Of a stretch of DNA of 64,000 nucleotides, positions 53,482 to 57,953 are shown piece after piece (position 1 is the first letter of the stretch; each line of letters begins with the position of its first letter). Below the pieces are notes generated by a model that was given only the letters and a program-made list of their open reading frames with translations, searched no databases and was not told where the DNA came from. This DNA comes from an uncultured Clostridia bacterium. GTDB lineage: Bacteria; Bacillota; Clostridia; Christensenellales; UBA1242. The stretch covers positions 1,533 through 65,532 of the forward strand of contig CALBHW010000037.1 of NCBI GenBank assembly GCA_937893125.1, given 5' to 3'. Both the position numbers and the translations under genes were made by a program.

Positions 53482-54102
53482 TTACTTTTTTATGTTGAAA
53501 ATCCCGAAAAATTTGTTATTTGGTTTTATAGGCTTTATAAAGTGGTTTAAAACAATAATGACCTGAACAAGTGCACCTAAAAGAAACATTATCCAAATAT
53601 TATAGTTTAAAAATTGGCAATAAATGGCGGTCACAAATGCCCATAAGGTGAGACTGCGAATGAATATGGATAGTTTTGCAATGCCCCAAACCTTATTGTA
53701 ATAGAAAAGAATAATTGTTGTCGCTGGAACAGCCCAAACAAACGCTTGCCAAAATTTTGTTCCTGTGTAAGAGCTAATATATACGTACAAAATTGTTGCA
53801 ATAATCCAAACAACAAAGCAAGACAAAATTGTCACAATAATTTTATTTGGTAAGTTACTGTTTTGCTTTATTTCTTCTTGCTCTACAAAAGCGTTTTCTT
53901 CAAAAAAGAGAGAAACGGGAACATCTAATATTTCGCTTAATTTATGTAAGGTCTCAATGTCGGGGAGAGACTCGCCCTTTTCCCAGCGGGAAATTGCTTT
54001 ATCAGAATAATTTAGTTTTTCTGATAACTCTACTTGCGTGAGTTTTCTTTTTTTTCTAATGGTTGCAATGTTTTTTGAAATTACTTCTTTTATATCTTCC
54101 AT
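53482..54102 (-). CDS. XRE-family helix-turn-helix regulator fused to a C-terminal four-TM domain
   Basis: The N-terminus IRKKRKLTQVELSEKLNYSDKAISRWEKGESLPDIETLHKLSEILDV is a typical Cro/C1 HTH. Four hydrophobic helices follow (IIVTILSCFVVWIIATILYVYI, FWQAFVWAVPATTIILFYY, LSIFIRSLTLWAFVTAIYCQFL, IWIMFLLGALVQVIIVLNHFI). Confidence 0.8.
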   Translation of the reverse strand: MEDIKEVISKNIATIRKKRKLTQVELSEKLNYSDKAISRWEKGESLPDIETLHKLSEILDVPVSLFFEENAFVEQEEIKQNSNLPNKIIVTILSCFVVWIIATILYVYISSYTGTKFWQAFVWAVPATTIILFYYNKVWGIAKLSIFIRSLTLWAFVTAIYCQFLNYNIWIMFLLGALVQVIIVLNHFIKPIKPNNKFFGIFNIKK

Positions 54103-54160: not shown

Positions 54161-54191
54161 AAATTCTCGCTCAGCGAGAGTGCGAGAAATT
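54161..54191. promoter_or_regulatory. Candidate operator in the divergent XRE / C-A-T intergenic region
   Basis: AAATTCTCGCTCAGCGAGAGTGCGAGAAATT. The half-site TCTCGC faces two tandem GCGAGA half-sites (54174-54179 and 54182-54187). The outer arms TTCTCGC / GCGAGAA are perfectly complementary. Confidence 0.4.
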
Positions 54192-54311: not shown

Positions 54312-55655
54312 ATGACAAATAAACGCAACTATTACGAACTTACCCCATCGCAAGAAGTCGTAAAAATGCAACTTCTTTTTTCAATCGACAAAAGGGTTAT
54401 AAACATCTTGTCGTCCGCGACAAGCGATGAAATGCTTGATATTGACCTTTTTAGACAAGCGATAACGCTTGCATTTATGCGAAATGATAGTATGCATATA
54501 AAATTTGTAAAAAGAAGAAAACTTATGCAATATTTTGACGACGACGCAAAATGCCCTGAAATTCCTTACTTAGAATTTAGGACAAAAGAAGAACAAGAAA
54601 GGTTTATAAAGGAAAGAAAGAAAAAGGCTATCTCATATAAGCATGGGAAGGTCGTCGAGTTTTATATTTGTAAAACATATGACAACAAATTTATGATTTT
54701 TGTAAAAATATGCCATCTAATTGCAGACCTTTATGGGCTTAACATATTTTATAAAGACCTTTTTGAAGTGTATGACGCGTTGAAAAATAACAAACCCCTT
54801 CCAAAGCCCCTTCCGAAATTTGAAGATGTTGTAAAGAAAGATTTGGAGTATAAGCACAACGAAAAGTTTAAACAAAGAAATTTTGACTTTTTCAATGAGT
54901 ATATGAGGGCAAGAGAAGAACCATATTATGCGGGTGTCCACGGATTAAATAGTAAAATTGCAAAAAAGAATTTTAATAAGCGTTCGATGAAAATGTTTCT
55001 TGTTAATAACAAAACAGAAAGTTATTTAAAGAAAATGGATTTAAAAACATCTTCAAAAATTGTTGATTATTGTGTCGCGCATAAAATTACGCCAGCCAAT
55101 TTCCTTTTTTATGCAGTGTCACTCACACAATCAAAACTCAATAGCAATGTAAAAAATCAACTTCAACTTGAACTTTCAAATTGTCGTGGCACGGCTCTTG
55201 AAAGAAGTGTATCGGGGACAAAAACTCAAAGTTTGGGGTGTTATGTGACGATGGACCCCGAAGCAAAACTTTCGGAGAGTTTAGACACCTTTTGTAAAAA
55301 TCAAACATTATTTTATAGACATCTTGGCTTTTCGGACTTTGCCTTTCAAATGCTGACGCACAAAATATGGAAAAGTTCCAATTTGCGAACATATTATGCC
55401 CTTACTTTTTCGTTTGTGCCAGTTATGAAGCCAAATGGCGTGAATTTTCAAATTTATAGCAACAATAAATGCGCATTGCCTTGCTATTATGCAGTGCTTT
55501 TTGATGTCAACACTCACGAGATGCAATTTATTTATGACGCGCAAAAGAAACTTGTAAATGGAAATGATATTGATAGATTTCACAATGCTTTTGAAAAAAT
55601 TGTTGATATTATGTTAAGCGACGACGACCCATATTTAAGAGATATAAAAATATAA
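54312..55655 (+). CDS. Free-standing condensation (C) domain-like acyltransferase
   Basis: The N-terminal YELTPSQEVVKMQLLF resembles NRPS C1 (LTxxQ...). ICHLIADLYGL carries the HxxxD catalytic core of the C-domain/CAT superfamily (canonical form HHxxxDG). The 447-aa size fits a single C domain. AAGGAG SD. Confidence 0.65.
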   Translation: MTNKRNYYELTPSQEVVKMQLLFSIDKRVINILSSATSDEMLDIDLFRQAITLAFMRNDSMHIKFVKRRKLMQYFDDDAKCPEIPYLEFRTKEEQERFIKERKKKAISYKHGKVVEFYICKTYDNKFMIFVKICHLIADLYGLNIFYKDLFEVYDALKNNKPLPKPLPKFEDVVKKDLEYKHNEKFKQRNFDFFNEYMRAREEPYYAGVHGLNSKIAKKNFNKRSMKMFLVNNKTESYLKKMDLKTSSKIVDYCVAHKITPANFLFYAVSLTQSKLNSNVKNQLQLELSNCRGTALERSVSGTKTQSLGCYVTMDPEAKLSESLDTFCKNQTLFYRHLGFSDFAFQMLTHKIWKSSNLRTYYALTFSFVPVMKPNGVNFQIYSNNKCALPCYYAVLFDVNTHEMQFIYDAQKKLVNGNDIDRFHNAFEKIVDIMLSDDDPYLRDIKI

Positions 55656-55666
55656 GGAGAAAACAA

Positions 55667-57394
55667 ATGAAATATTATAAGGAAACTGAAATGTTAAAAA
55701 ACACCTTTTTAAAAGAAGGTGACTACAAGAGTACAAAAGAAGTTTTTGAAAGGATAGCAAGGTTGGCGCCAGACGCACAAATTCTTGCCGAACTTGATAG
55801 TCATAGAAAAATTGTCTATCACACGGCAAAAGACCTTTTAGAAGATGTGGAAAGTTTTGGCGATGGGCTTATAGCGTTGGGGCTGAAAGGAAAACATATC
55901 GCTCTTCTTGCTGAAAACTCCTACAAATATTTTGTAACCGATGTCACAATCGTTGGAGGAGCGGGGGTTATTAGTCCAATCGACAAAGATGCAAAAGAAG
56001 ATTTACTCGAAACACTCCTTAAAAAGTGTGATGCGGAAGTTGTTATATGTTCTGCCTATCTTGTTCCAAAAATAAGAGATGTCGCTAAAAAGGTTGAAAA
56101 AATAAAAACTATTATCACAATCGACAAAAAAGTTGATGAGCTTGCAACATTTGACGAAATTCAAAAATTGGGAAAAGAAGAATGTAATGCGGGAAAGTAT
56201 AGGGCTCTTGAGCCAAATCTTGAAGATGTTGCGGAAATAATTTTCACATCTGGCACGACGGGGGCAAATAAAGCAGTTATGCTTACTGGTAGAAACCTTG
56301 CGACAAATATGTCTAATTGTCTTGATGTTATTCGCGGGTCGAAGAAAAACAATACATCTATGTCTATTCTTCCAATGCACCACGCGACCGAAATTTATAC
56401 GCACATTATGCCACGTGTTTCGGCAGGTAGGCTAACATACATAAACGGCAGTATGAAAGATATGATGATAAATATGAAGATTTTTAAGCCTTATATCATA
56501 ACCGTCGTTCCAATGGTTGCAAACGCTTTTTACAAAACGATTTGGCAAGAAGCAAGAAAACAAGGCAAGGAAGAAAAGCTCAAAAAAGGCATAAAACTTT
56601 GCAAAATGTTAAATAAATTTGGCATTGACGCGACGCATAAATTGTTTAAAGACCTTTTTGCCCCATTTGGTGGGAATTTGCAACAAATAGTTTGTGGCGG
56701 AGCGCCACTTGACCCAGAAGTTGTGTCGGGAATGCGAGACCTTGGTGTTTATATAATAAACGGTTTTGGAATAACGGAGTGCGGACCGCTTGTTTCTATG
56801 AATGCGGACACTTTGGGCGATTGTGCGTCGATAGGAAAGGCTTGCCCAAGACTGGAAGTTAAAATTTTTGAACCAGACGAAAACGGAATCGGCGAACTTT
56901 GCGTAAAAGGACCAAGTGTTTCAAAAGGCTACTACAAAGACGAAGAAGCAACAAAACAAGTTTTTGATAAAGATGGCTTTTTTCATACGGGCGACCTTGC
57001 GCGCCAAAATAAAAAAGGCGAATTGTTTTTGGCGGGACGAAAGAAGAATCTTATTGTACTAGATAGCGGAAAAAATGTCTATCCAGAAGAACTTGAACAA
57101 GCAATTGTTACAAATCTAAGATATGTAAAAGATACAATGGTTTTTGAAGAAGATTGCGAAATTAAGAACGAAAAAAAGAGACTTATTTGCGCGGAAATCT
57201 TTTTGAGCGATGAAAAAATAGACGATGACGAAGTTATAAATGATTTTAGAAAACTTAATCAAACTCTTGCTCCATATAAAAGAATTTCTTATGTGGAAAT
57301 TTTGGACAGCGACTTTGAGCGCAACGCGTCAAGGAAAATTATGCGCAAACCCGCGCTTGCTAGACACAAAAAGACGGGCGGACTTGTAATTTAA
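55667..57394 (+). CDS. AMP-dependent synthetase/ligase, long-chain fatty-acyl type
   Basis: Adenylate-forming core motifs are present: IIFTSGTTGANKAVMLT (A3), GFGITECGP (A5), GELCVKGPSVSKGYY (A6), FHTGDLA (A7), GRKKNLIVLDSGKNVYPEELE (A8) and a C-terminal SRKIMRK (A10 Lys). It starts 11 nt after the C-domain gene, with an AAGGAG SD. Confidence 0.85.
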   Translation: MKYYKETEMLKNTFLKEGDYKSTKEVFERIARLAPDAQILAELDSHRKIVYHTAKDLLEDVESFGDGLIALGLKGKHIALLAENSYKYFVTDVTIVGGAGVISPIDKDAKEDLLETLLKKCDAEVVICSAYLVPKIRDVAKKVEKIKTIITIDKKVDELATFDEIQKLGKEECNAGKYRALEPNLEDVAEIIFTSGTTGANKAVMLTGRNLATNMSNCLDVIRGSKKNNTSMSILPMHHATEIYTHIMPRVSAGRLTYINGSMKDMMINMKIFKPYIITVVPMVANAFYKTIWQEARKQGKEEKLKKGIKLCKMLNKFGIDATHKLFKDLFAPFGGNLQQIVCGGAPLDPEVVSGMRDLGVYIINGFGITECGPLVSMNADTLGDCASIGKACPRLEVKIFEPDENGIGELCVKGPSVSKGYYKDEEATKQVFDKDGFFHTGDLARQNKKGELFLAGRKKNLIVLDSGKNVYPEELEQAIVTNLRYVKDTMVFEEDCEIKNEKKRLICAEIFLSDEKIDDDEVINDFRKLNQTLAPYKRISYVEILDSDFERNASRKIMRKPALARHKKTGGLVI

Positions 57395-57421
57395 TTTTTG
57401 ATTTAATAAAGGAGAAGAAAA

Positions 57422-57661
57422 ATGAAAGAATTAAAGCAAATTATTAGTGATTATGTCGGTGTGCCTGCTGACGACTTAAATGAAAATACGAGCCTTGTAG
57501 GCGACATCGGGATTGATTCCTTTGGGCTGGTGTCTCTTATTTGTACACTTGAAGACACATTTGAATGTAATATCCCAGACTACGAACTATCGTCGTTTCA
57601 AACTCTAAACGACTTATCGTCATATCTTGCGAAAAATAGTACTGTTTTTGTGGCAGCGTAA
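57422..57661 (+). CDS. Acyl/peptidyl carrier protein (79 aa)
   Basis: LVGDIGIDSFGLVSLI contains the GxDS phosphopantetheine-attachment motif. The size and acidic helical character are typical. AAAGGAG SD; it starts 27 nt after the ligase gene. Confidence 0.8.
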   Translation: MKELKQIISDYVGVPADDLNENTSLVGDIGIDSFGLVSLICTLEDTFECNIPDYELSSFQTLNDLSSYLAKNSTVFVAA

Positions 57662-57953
57662 AATTTTATTTGATTGCAAATTGTTTTGTGAGAAACAGTG
57701 TTAAAACACTTTAATTTTAGGTTTTACGACCTAAAAAAGATTTTTTATGACAAAAAGTTTTGATTTTATGTAAAAAGTCTTTATAATTAAAAGGTAAAGT
57801 TTAAAGAATTTTTATTTGCCTTAAACTTTTCTATTTTATTGTGTATAACATATAAAATGTAATTTTAAAACTCAAACAAATTGCAACTTTTTAATGCTAA
57901 TTTTGTAAAAATCGAATTTGATAATAAAGAAATATAAAAATTAGGGAGAGAAA

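Follow-up and report, generated by a model that had tools for sequence, protein, structure and literature searches.

The 64-kb stretch of contig CALBHW010000037.1 analysed here (referred to as the window), from the genome of an uncultured Clostridia bacterium, probably carries a self-contained four-gene cassette of the fatty acid amide (FAA) nonribosomal peptide synthetase (NRPS)-like type. The cassette comprises genes for a free-standing condensation (C) protein, a long-chain fatty acid adenylating ligase, an acyl carrier protein (ACP) together with a membrane-embedded regulator of the XRE family. By homology, we consider it probable that a scavenged fatty acid is activated by the ligase, loaded onto the ACP and transferred by the C protein to a free amine, giving an N-acyl amide. 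A preliminary description of the locus had proposed this sequence of adenylation, loading and transfer and had named, as a parallel, stand-alone enzyme sets of gut Clostridia that form fatty acid amides. The parallel holds, since OaaC of Coprococcus eutactus is the closest solved structure of the C protein and the ligase and the ACP show 30% identity to OaaA and to OaaACP, respectively; the proposed chemistry is supported by this specific homology and by the common clade of the two C proteins.

The condensation protein

The C gene (54312–55655, + strand) encodes 447 aa that match the Pfam Condensation family (PF00668) with an E-value of 3.8e-23 and 82.3 bits (cut-off 30.6), although the Pfam alignment spans residues 5–330 only. 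An AlphaFold (AF2) model computed on 30 homologues (pLDDT 92, pTM 0.90) was compared with known folds using Foldseek, which returned TM scores of 0.77–0.81 to the C domains of SrfA-C, CDA C1, the RzmA starter C, LgrA and EntF. Because the model superposes on complete C domains, both lobes are present despite the partial Pfam alignment, and the C protein is, as modelled, a complete two-lobe C fold. The Foldseek library was older than the release of entry 12KH, so that this comparison supports the C fold and gives no rank for OaaC. The sequence ICHLIADLYGL occupies residues 133–143 and contains, within C-H-L-I-A-D-L-Y-G, the putative catalytic residues His135 (54714–54716) and Asp139 (54726–54728), both invariant across 30 homologues of the C protein. 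Family match, invariant residues and fold together confirm the earlier assignment of a C-domain-like protein retaining an HxxxD core.

The best match among solved structures was 12KH_A, co-linear over residues 5–432 at an E-value of 1e-21, with EntF following at 4e-4. This entry is the structure of OaaC, which acts as a free-standing condensation enzyme in the oleoyl-aminovaleric acid (OAA) pathway of C. eutactus (PMC13310621). Pairwise identity between the two proteins is 21%, and a profile built from the window family retrieved OaaC over its full length with an E-value of 2.7e-45 in a search of 1.8 billion representatives. The C protein is unlike a canonical NRPS C domain in its motif (CHLIADL), in consisting of a single 447-aa domain, and in residing in a genome without an NRPS module.

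Three active-site signatures were derived, namely C-H-[LY]-[IV]-x-D-[LIVT]-Y-G for the window family, D-H-x-x-x-D-S-[CS]-[GA] for the OaaC family and H-H-[IL]-[IV]-x-D-[GA]-W-S for modular NRPS C domains. Members of the window family have Cys at the first motif position in 87–95% of cases and L, I, V or T after the Asp. The signature reported for FAA enzymes is (D/H)HxxxD(S/A/G), in which the second His and the Asp are conserved in >99% of members and the first and post-Asp positions are described as variable (PMC13310621). In the corresponding logo, 95% of 127 sequences have S, A or G after the Asp (PMC13310621), so the window branch can be at most marginally represented in that set. At the level of sequence, Cys and the aliphatic residue at the two variant positions mark a sub-family; FAA membership is not thereby excluded.

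Phylogenetic position of the C protein

The set used for tree building comprised 38 window-family proteins, 12 OaaC-family proteins, 10 intermediate stand-alone C proteins from genomes of the host's order or class, a further 17 C proteins that likewise stand alone, and 29 modular C domains drawn from NRPSs of Clostridia, a reference set without curated MIBiG subtypes. In a quick tree of all 106 rows the window family and the OaaC family were each monophyletic (support 100 and 99, respectively) and formed, together with the intermediates, a starred clade that excluded the modular domains. A more careful IQ-TREE analysis of 56 rows recovered both families at 100/100 and united them, with five of the eight intermediates included, in one clade, again at 100/100. 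In the same tree the 30 stand-alone C proteins linked to a ligase or an ACP were split from 16 modular C domains at 92/98. Judged by these sequence comparisons, the C protein of the window is a member of the FAA-type C clade, where it groups with the OaaC family and apart from modular NRPS C domains, and it sits on a separate deep branch.

Several intermediate C proteins (loci L119, L135, L136, L137 and L141) fall between the OaaC and window families in the tree. Their C genes adjoin a gene for a membrane protein of 1,081–1,273 aa with a long coiled-coil, which by eye resembles an ABC permease of the FtsX/MacB type and could be a product exporter.

The ligase and the carrier protein

The ligase gene (55667–57394, + strand) encodes 575 aa with an AMP-binding domain (PF00501, E 2e-58) followed by AMP-binding_C_3 (PF23562). 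The match to OaaA extends over residues 25–560 with an E-value of 3e-67 and is stronger than the best match to a solved structure, a luciferase (E 1.5e-38). The top NCBIfam matches are models of long-chain fatty acid–CoA ligases, all below their cut-offs. Luciferases and acyl-CoA synthetases are the best solved relatives, and no chain named as a fatty-acyl-AMP ligase (FAAL) occurs among the best 60 of 76 solved-structure matches (E ≤ 1e-10). The ligase thus appears to be of the long-chain acyl-CoA synthetase/luciferase type, like OaaA, rather than a classical FAAL of the FadD32/FadD28 type; as OaaA does, it may act as an ACP-loading enzyme despite its non-FAAL family. Its earlier designation as a fatty-acyl-AMP ligase can be kept for the function that homology to OaaA suggests, not for the family, whose nearest members are acyl-CoA synthetases and luciferases. 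The broader description as an adenylate-forming enzyme of the long-chain fatty acid ligase type agrees with the PF00501, NCBIfam and OaaA matches.

The carrier protein (57422–57661, + strand; 79 aa) matches the PP-binding family (PF00550) with an E-value of 4e-14 and is distinct from the housekeeping AcpP, which is encoded on another contig of the genome (C59). The GIDS sequence noticed at the outset lies in DIGIDSF and contains the predicted phosphopantetheine attachment site, Ser33 (57518–57520); among 34 homologous carriers, at least 28 share the motif D-[IV]-G-[LI]-D-S-F.

As in the DltA/DltC pair, an adenylating enzyme is combined here with a small carrier protein, and the preliminary description had seen in this a partial resemblance. 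The Dlt system needs DltB and DltD in addition, and protein family searches of the window returned neither an MBOAT protein (DltB) nor DltD; the cassette adds a C-domain protein and a ligase of the fatty acid type, and the carrier matches the DltC model with an E-value of only 0.007 and 16 bits, far below the cut-off of 68. A D-alanylation system was rejected on these grounds and the comparison was abandoned.

Organization of the cassette and its putative regulation

The three biosynthetic genes were found packed exactly as initially described, with gaps of 11 nt between the C and ligase genes and 27 nt between the ligase and ACP genes. AAGGAG, a Shine-Dalgarno-type sequence, precedes each of the three starts, and its second copy shares bases with the C gene's stop codon. 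A fourth gene, which the preliminary description did not include, is transcribed divergently from the C gene across an intergenic region of 209 nt (53482–54102, − strand). Its product of 206 aa matches Pfam HTH_3 (E 2e-15) with a helix-turn-helix (HTH) at residues ~10–65, and hydropathy analysis predicts four membrane helices at residues ~87–190, an arrangement abbreviated XRE-4TM in the following. In 26 of 70 related loci a homologue of this regulator adjoins the C gene in divergent orientation and, judged from this arrangement, the XRE-4TM gene belongs to the cassette.

The intergenic region contains a candidate operator palindrome (54164–54188), TTCTCGC-TCA-GCGAGAG-T-GCGAGAA. Its core, CTCGC-N3-GCGAG, recurs in the matching intergenic region of eight further loci (L001, L002, L004, L006, L007, L009, L016 and L056), whose C proteins are 48–89% identical to that of the window, and degenerate versions occur in L027 and L059. 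It is likely, given this conservation, that the regulator represses or activates the operon through the palindrome.

Two XRE-4TM paralogues, 32–36% identical, are encoded elsewhere in the genome. One (C22:14803–15390, − strand) is divergent from a DegV/FakB gene (C22:15638–16492), with TCTAC...GTAGA palindromes in the spacer; the other (C55:4549–5274, + strand) lies upstream of an unannotated 203-aa open reading frame (ORF), a 208-aa ORF and acpS. All three XRE-4TM regulators sit at lipid-handling loci.

The cassette is flanked by housekeeping genes, encoding LeuRS, a U32 peptidase, a HIT protein, SpoIIE and TilS. Protein family searches of the 64 kb revealed no NRPS, polyketide synthase (PKS), thioesterase or phosphopantetheinyl transferase (PPTase) beyond the cassette, as had been stated before, and no second carrier protein within the window. 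Downstream of the ACP gene follows an AT-rich spacer of 292 nt (57662–57953) with a promoter-like TTGATT-16-TATAAT at 57760–57787, ahead of the HIT gene; a scan of the spacer returned no intrinsic terminator. From the length of this gap and the promoter-like site we infer that the operon ends after the ACP gene. The HIT gene was considered as a further part of the cassette and rejected, being syntenic in no relative.

The window also contains an ORF of 11,480 aa (12868–47310, + strand), which is rich in Gly, Ser, Thr and Asn and carries GGAIY-type beta-helix, Flg_new-like and leucine-rich repeat-like repeats. By its sequence it looks like a giant surface adhesin, and it was rejected as a missing NRPS/PKS synthetase because of this composition and these repeats. 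A second giant ORF (7,979 aa; C59:10087–34026) adjoins acpP, and the two together account for ~5% of the 1.23-Mb genome.

Fatty acid supply in the host genome

The host genome is 1.23 Mb in size and 98.75% complete. The type II fatty acid synthesis (FASII) enzymes ketoacyl synthase (KAS), FabD and FabZ/FabA were not found in it, while AcpP, AcpS, PlsX, PlsY, two PlsC and three DegV/FakB proteins are encoded. By gene content, the host is a fatty acid auxotroph in which the route from scavenged fatty acids to phospholipids is complete. With FASII missing from the genome, the acyl donor of the cassette must be exogenous, and as the bacterium cannot make fatty acids, the lipids that go into any product must be host- or diet-derived. 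The completeness of the scavenging route also makes the cassette dispensable for the synthesis of phospholipids, in keeping with the lack of the cassette in sister genomes.

The single Condensation match in the genome is the C protein of the cassette itself, the only two PP-binding carrier proteins are the cassette ACP and AcpP, and no second ANL ligase was detectable in the genome. Given this content, there is no assembly line that the cassette proteins could serve in trans. The only PPTase is one AcpS, encoded at C55:6451–6819, on a contig other than that of the window.

Distribution and variants of the locus

A search of 201 genomes of the host's order gave matches to the cassette in only 10, and the seven other genomes of its family, all of which are equally small, gave none. 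Relatives with 75–89% identity share none of the window's neighbouring genes in their flanks, and the four genes therefore travel as a unit. Among the 70 related loci, the ligase gene follows the C gene in 30 and the C–ligase–ACP trio is adjacent in 30. The family profile gives scores above roughly 380 bits for some 20 clusters formed at 50% identity. The bearers are metagenome-assembled genomes (MAGs) labelled Christensenella/Christensenellales, Clostridia, Oscillospiraceae/Acutalibacteraceae and rumen Bacteroidales.

Reduced versions also occur. In L005, L011, L013, L021 and L031 the C and ACP genes are present with no ligase gene between or beside them, so the carrier must be loaded by another enzyme. 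About 30 loci of the Oscillospiraceae type have the C gene alone. Such lone C genes (L033, L040, L043, L044, L047, L050, L055 and others, from Oscillospiraceae/Acutalibacteraceae MAGs) are ~41% identical, are often convergent with a gene for a patatin-like phospholipase (~283 aa), and lie near an alpha/beta-hydrolase gene (~370 aa). Complete C–ligase–ACP sets were found in rumen and faecal Bacteroidales MAGs (L058, L060, L061, L064 and L065) and nest, in the tree, inside an otherwise Bacillota family, which suggests transfer of the cassette between phyla.

Discussion

The biochemically characterised systems closest to the cassette are OaaA/OaaACP/OaaC and related clusters of gut Clostridia, for which transfer from acyl-ACP to an amine has been shown (PMC13310621, PMC10871352). 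As in the window, the C. eutactus locus encodes three free-standing proteins side by side and no thioesterase; OaaC shares with the C protein the full-length, co-linear C fold, the catalytic His and Asp and the phylogenetic clade, and OaaA shares the AMP-binding plus AMP-binding_C_3 architecture of the ligase. The two loci differ in gene order (C–A–ACP in the window, C–ACP–A in the OAA locus), in the regulator (XRE-4TM versus TetR), in the active-site motif (CHLIADLYG versus DHRLMDSCG) and in the host, which is a Christensenellales-like organism of 1.2 Mb here and one of the Lachnospiraceae there. The window ligase is, in addition, 56 aa longer than OaaA, with an insertion near residues 292–330.

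More generally, the FAA-NRPS clusters of gut Clostridia use stand-alone C, T (carrier) and A (adenylating) proteins to couple a fatty acid of dietary or host origin with a free amine or amino acid, as is expected for the window cassette. According to PMC13310621 and PMC10871352, which refer to Chang et al. (2021), the products include lauroyl tryptamine in E. rectale and oleoyl dopamine in Blautia. In these papers the ecf/ebf clusters of Enterocloster are given as making N-acyl lysines and putrescines; such clusters also encode a PPTase of their own, an SCP2-like lipid-transfer protein and a hydrolase, whereas the window cassette has none of these. Catalogued FAA clusters belong to Clostridium cluster XIVa in 95.4% of cases (PMC10871352), whereas the window subfamily occurs in Christensenellales-like, Oscillospiraceae/Acutalibacteraceae and rumen Bacteroidales MAGs. 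No literature linking Christensenellales with FAA NRPSs was found.

The chemical steps that we propose follow by homology from OaaA/OaaACP/OaaC, shown in vitro (PMC13310621), and the nature of the acceptor and the mode of regulation are likewise proposals. The single AcpS of the genome would modify Ser33 and so turn the 79-aa carrier into the holo form, and the ligase would adenylate a long-chain fatty acid scavenged from the gut and transfer the acyl group to the carrier thiol. The acyl-ACP would then dock on the free-standing C protein, where, with catalysis by His135/Asp139, a small-molecule amine that diffuses freely would attack the thioester, and no thioesterase would be needed to release the N-acyl amide. 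No decarboxylase or other amine-forming gene from which the acceptor amine might be predicted was linked to the cassette, either in the window or in the related loci. Control of the operon probably lies with the membrane-embedded XRE regulator, acting via the palindrome and possibly in response to a lipid ligand.

Several observations weigh against this scheme. The C protein is only 21% identical to the sole characterised relative with which it was compared, and no member of the subfamily has a known product. The motif departs from the FAA signature at the first and post-Asp positions, and with such a difference the acceptor pocket, and even the class of the nucleophile, could differ from those of known FAA enzymes. 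Members of the C-domain superfamily can also form esters. In many homologous loci no dedicated ligase or ACP accompanies the C gene. The cassette DNA is present in a few sequencing runs, none of which is listed as RNA.

If the acceptor were an oxygen nucleophile, such as an alcohol, a hydroxy acid, a glycolipid or a glycan, the same machinery would yield an ester. Cys in place of His/Asp as the first motif residue and a bulky aliphatic side chain following the catalytic Asp are suggestive of a remodelled acceptor side, the Oscillospiraceae homologues adjoin genes for patatin-like proteins and alpha/beta-hydrolases, which act on esters, and ester formation by some enzymes of the superfamily is established. 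We nonetheless regard this as unlikely, since no sequence feature specifically marks ester formation and the family lies inside a clade whose characterised members make amides from free amines (PMC13310621). A role in primary lipid metabolism, with the ligase and the ACP as an acyl-ACP synthetase route that channels scavenged fatty acids into membrane lipids and the C protein acting as a lipid acyltransferase, for instance in making an aminolipid of the bacterium's own membrane, would suit a fatty acid auxotroph whose only ANL enzyme is this ligase and whose XRE-4TM paralogues stand beside a DegV/FakB gene and upstream of acpS. It is rendered improbable by the scavenging route, already complete with three DegV/FakB proteins, PlsX, PlsY, two PlsC and AcpP, and by the behaviour of the cassette, which is patchily distributed (10 of 201 genomes in the order, none of seven in the family) and has variable flanks even at 75–89% identity, as expected of an accessory element and not of a core pathway.

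The cassette might, finally, supply trans-acting lipoinitiation parts, a starter C protein with its acyl-ACP donor, to a larger NRPS or PKS whose genes lie elsewhere. The C domains of the FAA type are reported to be nearest to starter C domains (PMC13310621), and the RzmA starter C was among the top fold matches. Starter C domains such as those of RzmA and CDA C1 share the fold (TM ~0.8) and the fatty-acyl donor with the C protein; unlike it, they are embedded in assembly lines, usually accept acyl-CoA, a donor that OaaC does not use, act on a carrier-bound aminoacyl acceptor and carry HHxxxDG. A genome that is 98.75% complete and has one Condensation match, two PP-binding proteins, no second ANL ligase and no KAS makes this explanation very hard to sustain. 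N-acyl amide formation from a scavenged fatty acid and a free amine is hence the reading that we retain.

The kind of system, an FAA-type C/A/ACP set, is already known from Chang et al. (2021), as cited in PMC13310621 and PMC10871352. What is new, on sequence evidence, is a sister branch that diverges deeply and lies outside Clostridium cluster XIVa, with its own active-site signature and regulator. The branch differs further in gene order, in lacking the ecf/ebf accessory genes and in a host that depends on foreign fatty acids. FAA-type N-acyl amides, some of which have links to inflammatory bowel disease, act on human G-protein-coupled receptors (PMC10871352); as a compact three-gene unit, the cassette is an easy expression target for a new microbiome lipid. 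More tentatively, and with rather low confidence, we suggest that the C-H-x-x-x-D-[LIV]-Y-G subfamily is a distinct FAA branch with a new class of acceptor, switched by a membrane XRE sensor and tied to a regulator set linked to FakB and acpS. If this were true, the cassette would be part of a lipid-sensing regulon and not an isolated secondary-metabolite cluster.

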